A DNA stretch of 49,796 bases. It comes from Pseudomonas phage TC6. The notes beneath the pieces were generated by a model. That model saw nothing but the letters and a program-made list of their open reading frames with translations, did not search any database and had not been told where the DNA came from. Made by a program: the position numbers and the translations under genes. The stretch lies in sequence record MG676466.1; one strand, given 5' to 3'. Below, in pieces: positions 824 through 45,974 of the stretch (position 1 is the first letter of the stretch; the number at the start of each line of letters is the position of its first letter).

Positions 824-2214
824 GTACGTTGAGAGTAGACACTCTACAAAAACCTGATAACAGCGTCACTGTTAATCTGGAAGATATCATTACGGAAGTG
901 AATCTAGGTGATACCACTTCCCCCGCTAAAGGAGCTGGCCTAGTAGGTTTCTCTAGTAGCGTTAGCTACCCTGATGGTACTGTAGGGGCTGAAATCCTAG
1001 AGGTAAGCTCTAAGATTGGCGTTACAGTAAAAGACTATGGTGCTGTCGGTGATGGCGTCACTGATGATACCGTAGCGATTCAAGCAGCCATCACTGCGGT
1101 TGGTCAATATAAAGACTTAGGTTGGCCTAGTGGTACCTACCTAATTACTCAGAAGTTGGTAATGCCAACTGGTCAAAGATGGGTGGGCGCTGGTGGCCAA
1201 CGTGGTGCCACTATTAAGAAGGGCGCCAATATCGACATGGTAGAAGTAGGTACTCTGTGTACTGTTCTTGATATTAGCCTAGAAGGTGAGGGAGCTACTT
1301 ACTCCGGTAAAGGGTTTGTAATTGCGTCTGGCTTTAGTCAGAACCTAGTGCGTTGCAGAGCCGTTAACATGGGTGGTGAGCCACTATACTTCGCTAATAA
1401 CGCAGGTGGTGGTGCAAACGTAACAGCGTTTGAAGGTTACCCTGTAGATACGGACACTTACGCTGGGTGCGTTATTGCAGGAGATACTTCTCCTCATCCT
1501 CGGTTCTTCCGTGGTATGTGGTTGAGCGGTGCTAACTTTGCCCTTGGCCCTGGTGCAGGTAATGGTGGATCGATGACTCAATTCTACATTAGAGATTTGA
1601 GGTTTGATCCTACTTCAACTCTGTTCCACATTTCCAATGGACGTTGTGCAACTCTTGGAGCCACGACGACTCTTAAGGGTTTCGATCACTCAATTGATGG
1701 CGTTGCTTTTGCAGGTCCAGTTGCACTCGACTCTGCTCAAGGCATCAACCTTGGTCCGTCTTGCTCTGTACCGTCACTCACGGAGAATGCGACCAACTCG
1801 CAATACAACTCCGTCTATGTACAGCGTAGGACCTACACCCCAACTTGGACGCAGACTAGTGCTACTCCTGCAATTGGTAATGGTACCTTGACTGGTAACT
1901 ATGTCCGAGCTGGTCACATGTGTCATGTGCAGATTGAATTGGTAGCAGGTTCGACTACGACCTTCGGTGATGCTGCATCAGGCTATCGTTTCTCTCTCCC
2001 GTTCCCTGGACACCTGTCTTTCAACCAGAGAGGGTTCCCTGTGCGAATCTACGACACTAGTGCTAGTGCAGATTTCACTGGGTGGGCATCCATTGGTGCG
2101 GGTCAAGATTACATCACCATCTCCGTAGGAGCACAGCAGGTTCGTTCTACGTCGCCTATGACTTGGGCCACTGGGGATACGCTGCATTGCTCGTTCTCCT
2201 ATATGACCCGTTAA
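820..2214 (+). CDS. tailspike / receptor-binding protein with pectate-lyase-like right-handed beta-helix (putative depolymerase)
   Basis: Motif VKDYGAVGDGVTDDTVAIQAAI is typical of the Pectate_lyase_3 / P22-tailspike-like beta-helix N-cap. Gly/Asn-rich repeats follow. 464 aa. Confidence 0.7.
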   Translation: MSTLRVDTLQKPDNSVTVNLEDIITEVNLGDTTSPAKGAGLVGFSSSVSYPDGTVGAEILEVSSKIGVTVKDYGAVGDGVTDDTVAIQAAITAVGQYKDLGWPSGTYLITQKLVMPTGQRWVGAGGQRGATIKKGANIDMVEVGTLCTVLDISLEGEGATYSGKGFVIASGFSQNLVRCRAVNMGGEPLYFANNAGGGANVTAFEGYPVDTDTYAGCVIAGDTSPHPRFFRGMWLSGANFALGPGAGNGGSMTQFYIRDLRFDPTSTLFHISNGRCATLGATTTLKGFDHSIDGVAFAGPVALDSAQGINLGPSCSVPSLTENATNSQYNSVYVQRRTYTPTWTQTSATPAIGNGTLTGNYVRAGHMCHVQIELVAGSTTTFGDAASGYRFSLPFPGHLSFNQRGFPVRIYDTSASADFTGWASIGAGQDYITISVGAQQVRSTSPMTWATGDTLHCSFSYMTR

Positions 2215-4393: not shown

Positions 4394-6148
4394 ATGTCAA
4401 CTAAAGTAGCTGAGCTTAATAGCTTGCTGGTACGTGATAGTTCTGCCCAATGGGTAGCCTATCTCTGGGATCGTTTTAATAATCAACGACGCCAGAAAAT
4501 TGAAGAGTGGAAAGAGTTGCGTAACTATGTTTTTGCAACAGATACTACTACGACTTCCAACCAAGGGTTGCCTTGGAAGAACTCTACCACCCTCCCAAAA
4601 CTTTGTCAGATTAGAGACAACCTTCACTCTAACTATTTCTCGTCCCTATTCCCTAACGACGACTGGCTTCGCTGGGTAGGTTATGGCAAGGGTGATAGCA
4701 CTAAAACTAAAGCCAAAGCCATCCAGGCTTACATGAGCAATAAGTGCAGAGAGAGTCATTTCCGCACTGAGGTTAGTAAGCTAATCTATGATTATATTGA
4801 TTACGGTAATGCGTTTGCCACTGTAAGTTTCGAAGCTAAGTACAAAGAGATGCCTGATGGCACTTTGGTGCCTGACTACATTGGCCCACGGCTTGTACGT
4901 ATTAGTCCACTGGACATTGTGTTTAACCCACTTGCAACCTCTATTTCTGACACCTTTAAAATTGTACGCTCTGTAAAGACCAAGGGAGAGCTTATGAGGC
5001 TCGCTCAAGATGAACCTGAGCAATCCTATTGGCTAGAGGCTTTGAAGCGTAGAGAAGAGATTTGCAGGCATCTAGGGGGTTATTCTGTAGAGGACTTCGA
5101 TAAGGCTGCTGGATTCGATGTAGATGGATTCGGTAACCTGTACGAATACTACATGAGTGACTGGGTAGAAATCCTGGAGTTCTATGGAGACTACCACGAC
5201 AAAGAAACTGGCGAACTTCAAACCAATAGAATTATCACTGTAGTAGATAGGTCTACTGAAGTTCGTAATGAGTCCATTCCGACTTGGTTTGGCTCTGCCC
5301 CAATTTACCATGTTGGTTGGAGATTCCGCCCAGACAATCTGTGGGCCATGGGACCTCTAGACAATCTAGTAGGTATGCAATATCGAATTGACCATCTTGA
5401 GAATGCCAAGGCTGATGCTGTCGATCTTATCATTCAACCTCCGCTGAAAATCATTGGTGAGGTGGAAGAGTTTGTATGGGGTCCTAGTGCGGAGATTCAT
5501 CTGGACCAAGGCGGTGATGTACAAGAGGTTGCCAAGAACGTTAACTATATCATCAATGCAGACAACCAAATTCAAATGCTAGAAGATCGTATGGAGCTGT
5601 ACGCTGGCGCTCCTCGTGAGGCTATGGGCATTCGTACTCCTGGTGAAAAGACTGCATTTGAAGTACAACAGCTTGGTAATGCTGCCGGTCGAATCTTCCA
5701 AGAGAAGGTCACTACGTTCGAAGTAGAACTGTTGGAGCCTGTGCTAAACGCTATGCTGGAAACCGCTACTCGTAACATGGATGGTAGTGATGTTATTCGA
5801 GTTATGGATACTGATCTTGGCGTTAAAGAGTTCATGTCTGTTACTCGTGAAGACATTACTGCTAACGGAAAGATTAGACCCATTGGCGCTAGACACTTCG
5901 GTAAGCAGGCACAAGACTTGCAAAACCTAGTAGGAATCTTCAATAGTCAAATTGGGCAAATGATTCTTCCTCACACTAGTGGTAAGGCGTTGGCTACTTT
6001 CGTAGATGATGTAACTGGATTGCAAGGTTACGAAATCTTTAGACCTAACGTGGCAGTAGCAGAACAAGCAGAGACTCAATCGCTTGTTGCACAAGCACAA
6101 GAAGACCTGCAACTTCAAGCTCAAATGCCTGCTGAGGGTGCTATCTAA
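4394..6148 (+). CDS. portal protein
   Basis: 584 aa ORF between terminase and scaffold/capsid, with the size and position of a portal. Acidic C-terminus. Confidence 0.7.
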   Translation: MSTKVAELNSLLVRDSSAQWVAYLWDRFNNQRRQKIEEWKELRNYVFATDTTTTSNQGLPWKNSTTLPKLCQIRDNLHSNYFSSLFPNDDWLRWVGYGKGDSTKTKAKAIQAYMSNKCRESHFRTEVSKLIYDYIDYGNAFATVSFEAKYKEMPDGTLVPDYIGPRLVRISPLDIVFNPLATSISDTFKIVRSVKTKGELMRLAQDEPEQSYWLEALKRREEICRHLGGYSVEDFDKAAGFDVDGFGNLYEYYMSDWVEILEFYGDYHDKETGELQTNRIITVVDRSTEVRNESIPTWFGSAPIYHVGWRFRPDNLWAMGPLDNLVGMQYRIDHLENAKADAVDLIIQPPLKIIGEVEEFVWGPSAEIHLDQGGDVQEVAKNVNYIINADNQIQMLEDRMELYAGAPREAMGIRTPGEKTAFEVQQLGNAAGRIFQEKVTTFEVELLEPVLNAMLETATRNMDGSDVIRVMDTDLGVKEFMSVTREDITANGKIRPIGARHFGKQAQDLQNLVGIFNSQIGQMILPHTSGKALATFVDDVTGLQGYEIFRPNVAVAEQAETQSLVAQAQEDLQLQAQMPAEGAI

Positions 6149-44089: not shown

Positions 44090-44335
44090 TTCTATTTCCT
44101 TACATCTATCCTAAGACATTACCAATAGATTTAACCGAGGATGAGATTGACAATTGCTACTTCCACCACAAGCTCGAAGAAACCGAACCAGCCAATCAAG
44201 CAAATCTCTTGTCTGTCCATCTTCCAACCATGGCGGATAAGACCAGTGAGGATGAGCATGTTACACCTTCCAGTCCTTGCGCTTCTGCGCAATGTAGGGG
44301 CCAATGACGAAGACACACACGAGGGCGATCATGGC

Positions 44336-44602
44336 TTACCTCCCCTTGATAGTATAGTAGATCGCTTGGGCGAACAGCTTCACACCAAAATGTACGATGT
44401 AGACGGCAGCCCCAAATAAAATTAGTGGTACTGTCACCGGCCACAACCCACCTATCAATATGGCGTGCTGGTCAGTGAACCAATCATTATCGTCTACGAG
44501 AGCCATAGCCATAGCTCCAGTTAAGAACGCCATAAGAACGTAGATGAGGGCACACATTAGGAAAAAGAATGCTATAGCTGCTACGTAGATTGCTTCGTTC
44601 AC
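44336..44602 (-). CDS. small membrane protein
   Basis: Three hydrophobic segments. Confidence 0.45.
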   Translation of the reverse strand: MNEAIYVAAIAFFFLMCALIYVLMAFLTGAMAMALVDDNDWFTDQHAILIGGLWPVTVPLILFGAAVYIVHFGVKLFAQAIYYTIKGR

Positions 44603-44622
44603 GAGTCACCTCTTTAATTAAT

Positions 44623-44705
44623 TGGCGCAGGAGGCGGGGTTCGAACCCGCATTTTCAGCTCCAATTACCCTTATCAATTTAGAAGACTGATGGGGCTACT
44701 CCCGC
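44623..44705 (-). other. tRNA-like element (acceptor stem + T-arm + encoded CCA), non-canonical D/anticodon region
   Basis: Minus-sense GCGGGAG...GCGGG-TTCGAAC-CCCGC-CTCCTGC-G-CCA. The T-arm has a perfect 5 bp stem with a TTCGAAC loop. A 7 bp acceptor stem (one G-U) is followed by a discriminator and CCA. The middle 46 nt do not fold into a canonical D or anticodon arm. Confidence 0.3.
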
Positions 44706-45131
44706 ACGACCTTTAAATCCACCCTTTGACCTTGTGAATTTAGCATTACAAGACCTAGAGCAGAAAAGATTCTTCTTGCCAGCTACTTGATTGGCCCATT
44801 TTCTAAATTCACAACTACAAAAAGCACATGACACCACTAAAGACTTTCTTTCTTTTCTATCAAAACATGTCTTCTTCATATGGTCTGACTTGCTAAGTAC
44901 TTGTAAGTTTTCTAACGAGTCGTTAGTCTTATCTCCATCTATGTGGTCAACTTCTTCAGACTTATCTAGTAGCCGCGCTAAGTGCACTGATACCACATAC
45001 TTAGCGTAGGATATTGTTGTTCTATCTTTGTTTGAGTTAAATAGGTCAACCCTTGCTCTGTCGTCCTTACATTTTCTGACATACCCATATTTATAAAGTT
45101 CTTTGTACGGGCTTTGTAATTCTATCTTCAT
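44679..45131 (-). CDS. HNH homing endonuclease
   Basis: VDHIDGDKTNDSLENLQVLSKSDH HNH motif with a C-terminal Cys cluster. Its last 9 codons read into the tRNA-like element. Confidence 0.7.
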   Translation of the reverse strand: MKIELQSPYKELYKYGYVRKCKDDRARVDLFNSNKDRTTISYAKYVVSVHLARLLDKSEEVDHIDGDKTNDSLENLQVLSKSDHMKKTCFDRKERKSLVVSCAFCSCEFRKWANQVAGKKNLFCSRSCNAKFTRSKGGFKGRAGVAPSVF

Positions 45132-45210
45132 AATTCCTCCAGTAGTTAATGTTAAGAGTACCTCTTACCGACGACACCCACATTAACTATTACAAGAATT
45201 ATTAGTTTTT

Positions 45211-45247
45211 CTCCTGCTCTATCCAATTGAGCTAACGGAACTTAATA
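45211..45247 (-). other. tRNA D-arm-like fragment
   Basis: Minus-sense GTTCCGT-TA-GCTC-AATTGGATA-GAGC-A is a textbook D-arm (U8, A14, G18G19, A21). No matching T-arm or acceptor partner is adjacent. Confidence 0.3.
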
Positions 45248-45529
45248 TTTGCTGATATTGTCCCAATATACATGGCCCTCTTCAGTTTCGTCCCAAATAA
45301 AGGCATTATCAATGTTGATACTTCCAGGGTCCTCATCTACAATCCAACCCTCACCATGATAAGTGGCGGTCTTCAAGTCTTCTTTCCTTTTAATCCATTG
45401 CTTTTCACAATTGACTCGAAGTTTTTCTAACACCTCTTGTTTTACCTCTTCGCCGAGACCAAAACAATAGCGTTCCACTTGTCTTGCTGCCTCAGTGAAC
45501 ATAAGAAAGTCCATGTTAAGTTTAAGCAT
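45242..45529 (-). CDS. hypothetical protein
   Basis: 95 aa ORF. Confidence 0.4.
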   Translation of the reverse strand: MLKLNMDFLMFTEAARQVERYCFGLGEEVKQEVLEKLRVNCEKQWIKRKEDLKTATYHGEGWIVDEDPGSINIDNAFIWDETEEGHVYWDNISKY

Positions 45530-45599
45530 GCCCCTATAACCTCCAGATTTGACGTATAACGCACGTTTGACCTATACCCTAGGCCACCCTACAGGGTAG

Positions 45600-45974
45600 T
45601 TAGATAACAGGCCTGTAGGCCATAATATCTAGGTTTACACCTATATGGTCCCAATAAAGAGCATTGCCATCCGCCTTTATCCCAAGTTCCCAGAATGTTC
45701 CATTGCGAAACCTAACTTCAAATCTATCTCCAGGTTTGCCAGGGTGCTTACCGCCACGATGGCGAATCCAAGACACTCGGTAGGCTACAATATCTCCCTC
45801 ATCATTGAGATGAGACCATACATTGTGGTTAAAATCTAACCAAACAATTCTCATAGAAGTCTTATAACCATCCCTGTAGATAACATCTACTTTAGTTCCA
45901 TAAGGAACAGGACATTCACCGCCGTTCCATTCAATCCATTCATTGCCGGGGCGAGCTTTAGGAAGCTTCAACAT
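45600..45974 (-). CDS. hypothetical protein
   Basis: Start refined to MLKLPKARPG with RBS GAGGGT. Preceded by motif copy B. Confidence 0.45.
   Translation of the reverse strand: MLKLPKARPGNEWIEWNGGECPVPYGTKVDVIYRDGYKTSMRIVWLDFNHNVWSHLNDEGDIVAYRVSWIRHRGGKHPGKPGDRFEVRFRNGTFWELGIKADGNALYWDHIGVNLDIMAYRPVI

Follow-up and report, generated by a model that had tools for sequence, protein, structure and literature searches.

The HNH nicking enzymes called F-Tfl are reportedly encoded by free-standing genes in the transfer RNA (tRNA) region of phage T5, and the circularly permuted tRNA genes of the red alga Cyanidioschyzon, said to have been described by Soma et al. in 2007, reportedly carry the 3' half before the 5' half, with processing restoring a normal tRNA. 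The gene for the T4 endonuclease SegB, of the GIY-YIG type, lies between those for tRNA-Arg and tRNA-Ile, and its product cuts relatives in the tRNA region (PMC2330249, PMC2988022). As for departures from the usual tRNA or tRNA gene, metazoan mitochondrial tRNA-Ser(AGY) is without a D arm (PMC4013460, PMC7609411), other disrupted tRNA genes are on record (PMC4033280), and integrating elements usually duplicate the 3' end of a tRNA and come with an integrase (PMC9897764). Here we analyze a locus at positions 44,623 to 45,247 of the 49,796-nucleotide (nt) sequence of Pseudomonas phage TC6 (MG676466.1), this whole stretch being called the window below. At this locus a gene for an HNH endonuclease stands between the 5' remnant of a canonical tRNA-Arg gene and a second tRNA element of unusual design, here called the odd tRNA, whose anticodon arm is not preceded by a D hairpin and is followed by a D-loop-like motif. 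We consider it probable that the locus is a homing-endonuclease cassette, composed of the HNH gene and a spare tRNA-Arg(UCU) gene, which would have destroyed the resident tRNA gene and supplied a substitute for it. The target of the endonuclease, the charging of the spare tRNA and its three-dimensional fold we infer from sequence.

The HNH gene and the two tRNA-Arg sequences beside it

The TC6 region is 96% identical to PA11 and PSA11 (PA11-like phages, genus Paundecimvirus), and the locus lies between small phage open reading frames (ORFs), on one strand. Read along the minus strand from 45241 to 44623, it begins with GTTCCGT-TA-GCTC-AATTGGATA-GAGC and continues with AGGAGAAAAAC..., a GGAGG ribosome-binding site, an ORF of 150 codons (45131-44679) and the tRNA element. 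Its main features are the following:

45216-45241, minus strand: 5' remnant of the canonical tRNA-Arg(UCU), nt 1-26, with acceptor strand GTTCCGT, then TA, then the D arm
45211-45217, minus strand: heptamer GCAGGAG at the left junction, overlapping the last GC of the D stem; also in Ty (L005, about 1590-1596)
45132-45210, minus strand: leader of the endonuclease gene, with the GGAGG ribosome-binding site at 45136-45140 and the first CTTGTAAT repeat at 45189-45196
44679-45131, minus strand: HNH endonuclease ORF, 150 amino acids (aa); Pfam HNH_3 1.5e-8, PHROG 14913 'HNH endonuclease' 2e-73
44745-44752, minus strand: second CTTGTAAT repeat, within the HNH ORF, where the deletion of PP21 and FBPa8 ends
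44623-44705, minus strand: odd tRNA-Arg(UCU) gene, 83 nt including CCA; Rfam tRNA 38.7 bits, family model R1 (see below) 74.1 bits, E 2.4e-19

A sequence-only reading of this stretch had noticed a textbook D arm upstream of the HNH ORF, and TA-GCTC-AATTGGATA-GAGC does lie within 45216-45241 of the minus strand. The 26 nt of this interval are 100% identical to nt 1-26 of the intact tRNA-Arg(TCT) of phage PPAT, whose full sequence is GTTCCGTTAGCTCAATTGGATAGAGCTACAGCCTTCTAAGCTGTAGGTTACAGGTTCGAGTCCTGTACGGAACGCCA, and differ by one D-loop base from the tRNA-Arg of K4 and O4. These three relatives hold an intact 77-nt tRNA-Arg (anticodon TCT) at the locus, between homologues of the two flanking genes, and it begins directly after the stop codon of the upstream gene. 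In TC6 it is the 26-nt piece that abuts this stop codon (45242-45244), in a gene whose homologue likewise precedes the PPAT tRNA. Given this identity and this position, the textbook D arm is thus what a destroyed canonical tRNA-Arg(UCU) gene has left of its 5' end. The remnant is carried by TC6, PA11, Ty, PP21 and FBPa8.

The other end of the destroyed gene can be followed in FBPa8, where the order is 26-nt remnant, leader, last 24 HNH codons, odd tRNA, 14 nt, and what is left of the old tRNA on its 3' side, about position 38 to CCA (AGCTGTAGG...ACGGAACGCCA). Because FBPa8 keeps the old 3' part too, the cassette sits inside the old tRNA gene, where it replaces about positions 27-37. Compared with the FBPa8 state, TC6 has the whole HNH ORF and is missing the old 3' part, a loss that would be consistent with a deletion between two CGCCAA repeats. 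PP21 and FBPa8 lack 444 bp between the CTTGTAAT repeats and keep only the end of the HNH gene mentioned above; PP21 corresponds to the window sequence minus those 444 bp. The HNH gene is intact in the window, PA11, PSA11 and Ty, truncated in PP21 and FBPa8, and absent in K4, PPAT, O4, IME180 and HHBS10_2. The last two have the odd tRNA alone at the locus, without remnant and without HNH gene. Such sporadic presence at one locus, with the gene intact, decayed or absent in close relatives, is the pattern expected of a homing endonuclease gene.

Downstream of the leader and most of the ORF, the minus strand reads GCGGGAG-TAGCCCCA-TCAGT-CTTCTAA-ATTGA-TAA-GGG-TAATTGGA-GCTGAAAAT-GCGGG-TTCGAAC-CCCGC-CTCCTGC-G-CCA, in which the following parts can be told apart:

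44699-44705, minus strand: acceptor 5' strand GCGGGAG, pairing with 44627-44633
44692-44694, minus strand: 5' strand CCC of a helix called helix X (mapped to D-stem 23-25), followed by A26 at 44691; pairs with GGG at 44668-44670
44674-44690, minus strand: anticodon arm TCAGT-CTTCTAA-ATTGA, anticodon UCU; the loop contains the HNH stop codon and the stem covaries
44671-44673, minus strand: linker TAA between the anticodon arm and the 3' strand of helix X
44668-44670, minus strand: helix X 3' strand GGG (mapped to D-stem 10-12), found by covariation, in the minimum free energy (MFE) fold and by RNAalifold
44651-44667, minus strand: D-loop-like motif TAATTGGA, then GCTGAAAAT, in the place of the variable loop; mapped as U13 A14 A15 U16 U17 G18 G19 A20
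44634-44650, minus strand: T arm GCGGG-TTCGAAC-CCCGC; GTGAG/CTCAC in Ty and IME180, where both strands differ at two pairs
44623-44633, minus strand: acceptor 3' strand CTCCTGC, discriminator G and CCA; the sequence downstream, ATTAATTAAAG..., is the one that follows the canonical tRNA in K4 and PPAT

The T arm, the templated CCA and the 7-bp acceptor pairing reported by the first reading are all present, the CCA at 44623-44625 behind the discriminator G at 44626, and the acceptor helix between CTCCTGC (44627-44633) and GCGGGAG (44699-44705) with one G.U at pair 3:70. The Rfam tRNA covariance model (RF00005, gathering cut-off 29 bits) matches the downstream element at 44626-44705 of the minus strand with an E-value of 4e-6 in a 2-kb scan and 1e-4 over the whole window, and this is the sole Rfam gathering-level match in the whole 49.8 kb; other copies score 41.7 (IME180) and 29.7 bits (Kuravirus). 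Neither this match nor the identity of the upstream piece to PPAT is put down to chance. Of the features of that family, the element has the 7-bp acceptor with CCA, a 5-bp/7-nt anticodon arm with U33 and a TTCRA T arm. The alignment to the model deletes 13 positions, those of the D arm, and places an insertion of about 20 nt behind the anticodon arm. Only TAGCCCCA, with no D hairpin, separates position 9 from the anticodon arm, and RNAalifold finds no such hairpin. The D-loop-like motif that follows the anticodon arm, UAAUUGGA, shares the string AATTGGA with the D loop of the canonical tRNA. The single-sequence MFE fold of the window copy comprises acceptor, helix X, anticodon arm and T arm. 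ARAGORN calls zero tRNAs in the window, leaving the odd tRNA uncalled.

Among close relatives, compensatory changes are seen in every stem of the odd tRNA. When Ty, IME180 and the viral contig L009 are compared with the window, the T stem is GCGGG/CCCGC or GTGAG/CTCAC, the anticodon stem TCAGT/ATTGA, TCAGT/ACTGA or GCAGT/ATTGC, and the G.U at acceptor pair 3:70 of the window has G-C as its counterpart in Ty and IME180 and A-U in L009. We read the downstream element from these features as a self-contained tRNA-Arg(UCU) gene and not a fragment. The earlier suggestion that the locus holds remnants of two tRNAs is thus right in that two different tRNAs are present, whose acceptor strands do not match, as had been noted (upstream GTTCCGT does not pair with downstream CTCCTGC), and wrong in taking the downstream piece, a complete gene that stands alone in IME180 and HHBS10_2, for a remnant. 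Likewise, the idea of a tRNA gene disrupted or split by the endonuclease gene survives as disruption, given the 26-nt remnant and the intact tRNA in the sister phages, and fails as splitting by an intron. What had been overlooked is that the anticodon of the downstream tRNA, UCU, is that of the destroyed tRNA, and that the D arm is rearranged rather than merely absent, in a design shared by a large family. In favor of a role in decoding, the odd tRNA is the only tRNA in the TC6 window, which has a G+C content of 45% and in which AGA and AGG make up 40% of the Arg codons; these two codons are rare in the G+C-rich host.

The HNH ORF ends inside the tRNA element, as had been claimed: its final nine codons overlap it, and its stop codon TAA (44679-44681) is formed by U36-A37-A38 of the anticodon loop CUUCUAA. 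In an alignment of six relatives, D62, H63, N70, N75 and H84 as well as C102, C105, C124 and C128 are invariant, so that the intact ORF has the HNH catalytic motif of a free-standing homing endonuclease. The protein is 98.7% identical to PA11 ORF064 and 68.7% identical to its Ty counterpart. Conservation stops near aa 138, and only the window and Ty have the tRNA-encoded tail, RAGVAPSVF; the overlap would therefore seem to be incidental, the ORF simply reading on to the UAA of the anticodon loop. Relatives of the protein with 35-52% identity occur in 53 GenBank phage records. A sequence search of the PDB with the HNH protein gave zero matches, T5 is absent from its tblastn matches at E<=1e-8, and the similarity to F-TflI stated in the PA11 record was not reproduced at that threshold.

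Several smaller observations concern the same stretch of DNA. The GCAGGAG heptamer at the left junction is the perfect complement of the 3' acceptor strand of the spare tRNA, CTCCTGC, and the odd tRNA of L009 has the very same heptamer as its 5' acceptor strand. Possibly the HNH gene once inserted behind position 7 of an odd tRNA gene and the heptamer is left over from that event. In IME180 (L007, about 880-1000, minus strand) a G+C-rich insertion of about 100 nt lies just after the odd tRNA, flanked by the similar short repeats CCCTTCAATGG and CCCTACAAAATGG and an inverted repeat GGGGATG...CCATCCCC; HHBS10_2 has this insertion as well, whereas the other relatives are without it, and it has zero matches in Rfam. 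A promoter scan of 44300-45700 returned promoter-like matches at chance level, and a terminator scan of the same interval two terminator-like sites, both on the strand opposite to the genes. In the unrelated contig L009, the odd tRNA is preceded, about 10 nt upstream, by a near-consensus promoter of its own (TTGACA, 17 nt, TAGAAT; 5145-5185, minus strand), and forms an independent transcription unit there. No integrase was found among the two scanned neighbours or the annotated ORFs at the locus in relatives.

The family of odd tRNAs

More than 170 sequences share the odd design; they come from viral contigs, phages in GenBank and some bacterial chromosomes. For the analysis of pairing, 100 distinct sequences were parsed with filters that considered the acceptor, anticodon and T stems only (helix X was unused) and aligned as modules of fixed length. 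Over the four helices, 92.5% of the cells hold standard pairs, as against 58.3% in shuffled alignments and 40-48% with slid partners, and the covariation score is 0.904 versus 0.22. The acceptor stem is 98.6% paired, with all seven pairs changed on both sides, the anticodon stem 94% and the T arm 99.4%. Helix X, which lies at the foot of the anticodon arm and joins the three nt before position 26 to the three nt before UAAYUGGA, has pairs formed in 100%, 100% and 78% of members, each with four Watson-Crick types, and the next pair outward is unpaired in 93%. RNAalifold, applied de novo to 35 full-length sequences, returns the same four helices and zero D hairpin. The family model R1, a covariance model made from the 35-sequence alignment with the window sequence included, gives bimodal scores, with odd tRNAs at 57-89 bits (a few distant members at 40-50) and canonical tRNAs at 36 or below; a second batch of loci yielded 83 further R1 matches at E<=1e-8. 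The length to the discriminator, 74-84 nt, is about that of a normal tRNA, which argues for rearrangement rather than insertion. This covariation we regard as strong evidence for a rewired core, as predicted from the alignments.

Expressed in tRNA positions, the proposed mapping gives the order 1-7, U8, A9, the equivalent of 22-25, 26, the anticodon arm 27-43, a linker of 3-10 nt, the equivalent of 10-13, A14 A15 Y16 U17 G18 G19 N20, a few nt ending in A-U, and the T arm. The segment 10-21, comprising one D-stem strand and the D loop, would thus have been relocated 3' of the anticodon arm. The new joins (9 to 22, 43-45 to 10, and 21 to 46-48) connect nucleotides that lie close to one another in the usual L-shaped fold anyway. 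The T stem is immediately preceded by AT in 96 of the 100 family members. In about 170 sequences U directly precedes the T stem when position 15 is A, and in four distinct members (six matches) C does so when position 15 is G, with one exception; these G15 members are at 1341, 1543 and 6007 of L022 and at 2238 of L149, with L026 repeating L022 and L023 differing from it by one base. On our mapping this covariation is that of the classical 15:48 pair.

GG is followed by A in all Arg members and by U in those with Ile (GAU, UAU) or CAU anticodons. In bacteria, the arginine identity set consists of A20 (the main determinant for arginyl-tRNA synthetase, ArgRS), C35, U/G36 and A/G73, and U20 belongs to the isoleucine set (PMC9976931). 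The window odd tRNA has C35, U36 and G73, and its A after GG would be position 20 by the proposed mapping. Members with Ile or CAU anticodons, at 1260-1336, 1341-1421 and 1543-1631 of L022, 4321-4397 of L085 and 2238-2314 of L149, have GGU in place of GGA in the D-loop-like motif. Altogether the anticodons are UCU, CCU, UCG and ACG for Arg, GAU and UAU for Ile, and CAU. A first regular-expression scan had suggested that the design was confined to arginine; this was overturned when the covariance model found the Ile and CAU members, which show that it is not so restricted. We propose, with a confidence that stops a little short of even, that the odd tRNA is a working, internally permuted tRNA of an architecture that would be undescribed, in which U8, A14, the R15:Y48 pair, G18, G19, position 20 and the partners in the T loop would all be kept.

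As to its distribution, a 22-nt core pattern found four marine metagenome variants, flanked in large tRNA clusters by the canonical genes for tRNA-Arg(CCU) and tRNA-Arg(UCU), and a looser pattern (CTTCTAM...TAAYWGGA...GTTCGA) found at least 120 loci with at least 107 distinct sequences in IMG/VR. In bacterial and archaeal assemblies the looser pattern gave 49 well-formed examples among the first 120 matches listed. By BLAST the odd tRNA is present in 26 Klebsiella phage records and in a Microbacterium phage. Most of the 25 Klebsiella records listed have no feature annotated at the site and one has 'tRNA-OTHER'; the Klebsiella type was not found in E. coli genomes. ARAGORN called none of 100 family members when these were extracted, and called two loci given with longer boundaries (L022 and L236). 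Of the 11 loci that a further pattern, TAGCCCC...AGGGTAATTGG, gave in viral contigs, nine (L012-L020) were discarded as chance matches in coding DNA.

The view that the design belongs to phages only was likewise rejected, because Rhizobiales isolates carry it amid housekeeping genes. In Brucella haematophila and Mesorhizobium the neighbours are genes for catalase, a PAS/HWE kinase, Ppx/GppA and FtsJ, an ordinary chromosomal context. An odd tRNA-Arg(UCU) is found near tRNA-Gln(CTG) in Brucella haematophila (L165), Ochrobactrum (L233) and Mesorhizobium (L173), beside tRNA-Lys and an integrase in Devosia (L181), and within arrays of 19-25 tRNA genes in two metagenome-assembled genomes of Blastocatellia (L155, L190). 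In the marine phage clusters L021-L023, the ARAGORN calls include several further tRNAs that are too long or strangely placed: an 85-nt tRNA-Met, an 82-nt tRNA-Trp, an 86-nt tRNA-Asn and a 'tRNA-Pyl'.

Recurrence, proposed mechanism and alternatives

An endonuclease gene in a broken tRNA-Arg gene, accompanied by a spare tRNA-Arg, is found in at least five unrelated phage groups and with at least two endonuclease families. Outside the close relatives of TC6, loci with this or a related arrangement are these:

L028, a 91-kb viral contig: canonical 5' part (to about nt 29), odd tRNA-Arg(UCU), HNH gene (52% aa identity), canonical 3' part
L088: canonical 5' part, HNH gene, odd tRNA, 7 nt, canonical 3' part
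Kuraviruses 1-6af and Bas91 of E. coli (L031, L032): canonical 5' remnant GCACCCTTAGCTCAATGGAGG at the start of the HNH gene, spare tRNA-Arg(UCU) after the ORF
Acinetobacter Saclayviruses: just upstream of the HNH gene, a divergent element that resembles a tRNA, has a UCU anticodon loop and is by eye an odd tRNA-Arg
L148 (IMGVR_UViG_3300035698-type), offsets about 800-1540: a different, unrelated HNH ORF and an intact canonical tRNA-Arg(TCT) between the halves of another tRNA-Arg
L081, about 250-1000: canonical tRNA-Arg 5' remnant and odd tRNA, then an ORF with the motif IAFPD...IEING

Across these examples the breakpoints fall between the D loop and the anticodon loop, at about nt 20 to 32. 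The Kuravirus spare is an odd tRNA-Arg(UCU) in 1-6af and near-canonical in Bas91, where U8-A9-G10 provides the stop codon; in L148 the HNH ORF stops, as in TC6, in the anticodon loop (GCC TTC TAA). The Saclayvirus element reaches 29 bits with the family model, within the range of canonical tRNAs. Judged by eye from its motif, the ORF of L081 may encode an endonuclease of the PD-(D/E)xK type, in which case a different nuclease family may occupy the same kind of site. Two side observations belong here. L148 has an odd tRNA-Arg and a further 3' tRNA remnant about 650 nt upstream. In Bas91 (L032, about 1200-1335) the spare tRNA-Arg is followed by about 130 nt that end in a T arm TCTGG-TTCGATT-CCAGA and TAGTCCA-CCA; Rfam reports zero matches for this stretch at E<=0.1, and it is possibly another broken or unusual tRNA.

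We envisage the cassette to work as follows. In a mixed infection, the endonuclease would cut or nick the canonical tRNA-Arg of relatives without the endonuclease, between the D arm and the anticodon loop, and repair would then copy the endonuclease gene together with the neighbouring tRNA. The spare tRNA would maintain the decoding of AGA and AGG. Because its DNA is arranged differently, it would, on this proposal, not present the target site, and such putative immunity to the endonuclease through the odd arrangement is an attractive idea. As an RNA, it would adopt the usual L, with the chain running from 9 to 22, from 43 through the linker to 10 and from 21 to 48, and would be charged by ArgRS through A20, C35, U36 and G73. 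The endonuclease would afterwards decay, as in PP21 and FBPa8, or disappear, as in IME180, while the odd tRNA stays. The HNH ORF would enter the tRNA only because its own stop codon is missing; RNase P cleavage at the 5' end of the tRNA would then cut the HNH mRNA 27 nt before its stop, thus removing the stop codon, and might limit expression.

A number of points weigh against this proposal or parts of it. A relative of the TC6 HNH gene lies within a few hundred nt in only about 5% of the viral loci with an odd tRNA, and since some members sit in ordinary chromosomal surroundings in Brucella/Ochrobactrum and Mesorhizobium, the odd design is more than an accessory of the endonuclease. A canonical tRNA can also be the spare, as in L148 and Bas91, and immunity through the odd arrangement is therefore not required. 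The varying order of endonuclease and spare and the varying breakpoints may reflect independent events rather than one mobile unit, and homing itself would rest on the pattern of gene presence and absence together with the remnants. With respect to the tRNA, ARAGORN rejects 100 of 100 family members, and the single-sequence fold of the window copy is unexceptional (z = -1.6). Finally, the odd tRNA of the window and PA11 type has G3.U70 (G at 44703, minus-strand T at 44629), found in 3 of 100 family members, which could cause mischarging: G3.U70 is the main alanine identity pair (PMC9976931), and it could lead to some alanine charging of a reader of AGA.

It is conceivable that the HNH gene and the odd tRNA are incidental neighbours, the tRNA having arrived by ordinary phage recombination and the endonuclease neither targeting tRNA-Arg nor mobilising the tRNA. 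Endonuclease genes commonly accumulate around phage tRNA genes, relatives of this HNH gene adjoin other tRNAs (tRNA-Phe in Acinetobacter phages, for example), IME180 has its odd tRNA without HNH gene or remnant, and most odd tRNAs, which occur also in bacterial chromosomes, are without an adjacent endonuclease. The recurrence of the whole arrangement in unrelated phage groups and with more than one endonuclease family nevertheless makes mere coincidence unlikely in our view, and the Acinetobacter phages, too, have a putative odd tRNA-Arg(UCU) just upstream of the HNH gene. Alternatively, the RNA might not decode at all and serve as a processing signal for RNase P/RNase Z, as a decoy for a host tRNA-cleaving defence or as a non-ribosomal donor. 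This would agree with the absent D hairpin, the rejection by ARAGORN, the G3.U70 pair of the window copy, the position of the element between two ORFs, one of which it overlaps, and its occurrence beside a canonical tRNA-Arg(UCU) in marine phage clusters, where it can thus be redundant. We consider it decidedly improbable, as the element replaces the only tRNA of these phages by one with the same anticodon in a genome with heavy AGA/AGG use, its anticodon loops are without exception regular loops of 7 nt, the nt at position 20 changes with the anticodon (A in Arg members, U in Ile members), and identity elements, discriminator and often CCA are retained.

Two further explanations concern the way in which the tRNA pieces came about. 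The Rfam alignment, with its deleted D arm and 20-nt insertion, could be taken to indicate a decaying pseudogene that lost the D arm and gained junk in the variable region; the supposed junk is, however, the most conserved part, and the new helix covaries in more than 100 sequences from unrelated phages and bacteria, with compensatory changes even between close relatives. We regard decay as refuted by this covariation and give it very little chance. The possibility that a single tRNA is split by a group I intron carrying the HNH gene, with the pieces as exons, is suggested by a 5' piece upstream and a 3' piece downstream of the gene; HNH genes are often found in phage group I introns, and bacterial tRNA genes can carry such introns. 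Here, intron models gave zero matches at E<=10, GTTCCGT cannot pair with CTCCTGC, and the downstream element possesses a 5' acceptor strand and an anticodon arm of its own and occurs alone in IME180. Moreover, PP21 has lost most of the presumed intron with the pieces still unjoined, and the 3' sequence that truly belongs to the upstream piece is found in FBPa8 beyond the odd tRNA. A split tRNA is thereby refuted, and we put its chance close to nil.

Comparison with known systems

In the full-text literature searched, mostly outside subscription journals, neither the tRNA architecture nor a cassette of endonuclease plus spare tRNA was found described, and an earlier description is possible. A 2020 review of non-canonical tRNAs mentions neither phages nor the odd arrangement (PMC7609411). 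If the odd RNA is a working tRNA, an L-shaped adaptor could be built from another order of strands, which would bear on tRNA folding and design and on recognition by RNase P, the CCA-adding and modification enzymes, ArgRS and isoleucyl-tRNA synthetase, EF-Tu and the ribosome. Since standard finders skip odd tRNAs, the tRNA sets of such genomes would be under-counted; phage tRNA counts and the arguments from codon usage built on them are biased because ARAGORN largely misses these tRNAs and most of the GenBank phage records listed have no annotation there. Endonuclease genes that break a canonical tRNA-Arg gene beside an odd tRNA may also help to spread the latter. More generally, a homing endonuclease could invade an essential small RNA gene without splicing, by way of an adjacent substitute gene.

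Among tRNAs of unusual shape, the metazoan mitochondrial tRNA-Ser(AGY) resembles the odd tRNA in having no D hairpin, three helical arms and an anticodon arm that is effectively longer. The odd tRNA differs from it in being unshortened (74-84 nt), in having the D-loop-like G18 G19 and position 20, a counterpart of the D-stem helix and an ordinary T loop, and in occurring in phages and bacteria. With the permuted genes of Cyanidioschyzon it shares a segment order that departs from that of the cloverleaf; its ends, in contrast, are normal, the moved segment (positions 10-21) is internal, and there is no sign of restoration.

With regard to the locus as a whole, a partial tRNA gene adjoins foreign DNA in TC6 as it does at integrating elements, but it is the 5' end that is kept, the incoming gene encodes an endonuclease, and another tRNA takes the place of the old one, which is not restored. 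Like the gene for T4 SegB, the TC6 endonuclease gene lies outside an intron in a tRNA region, is present or absent among relatives and would be expected to drag tRNA sequence along; unlike it, it sits inside a broken tRNA gene and comes with a substitute tRNA of the same anticodon, its activity and target being predicted from sequence. As with homing genes in group I introns and inteins, the element interrupts its presumed target gene and thereby would remove the recognition site while function persists, yet in TC6, where no ribozyme model matches, that function would be kept by a spare gene and not by splicing.

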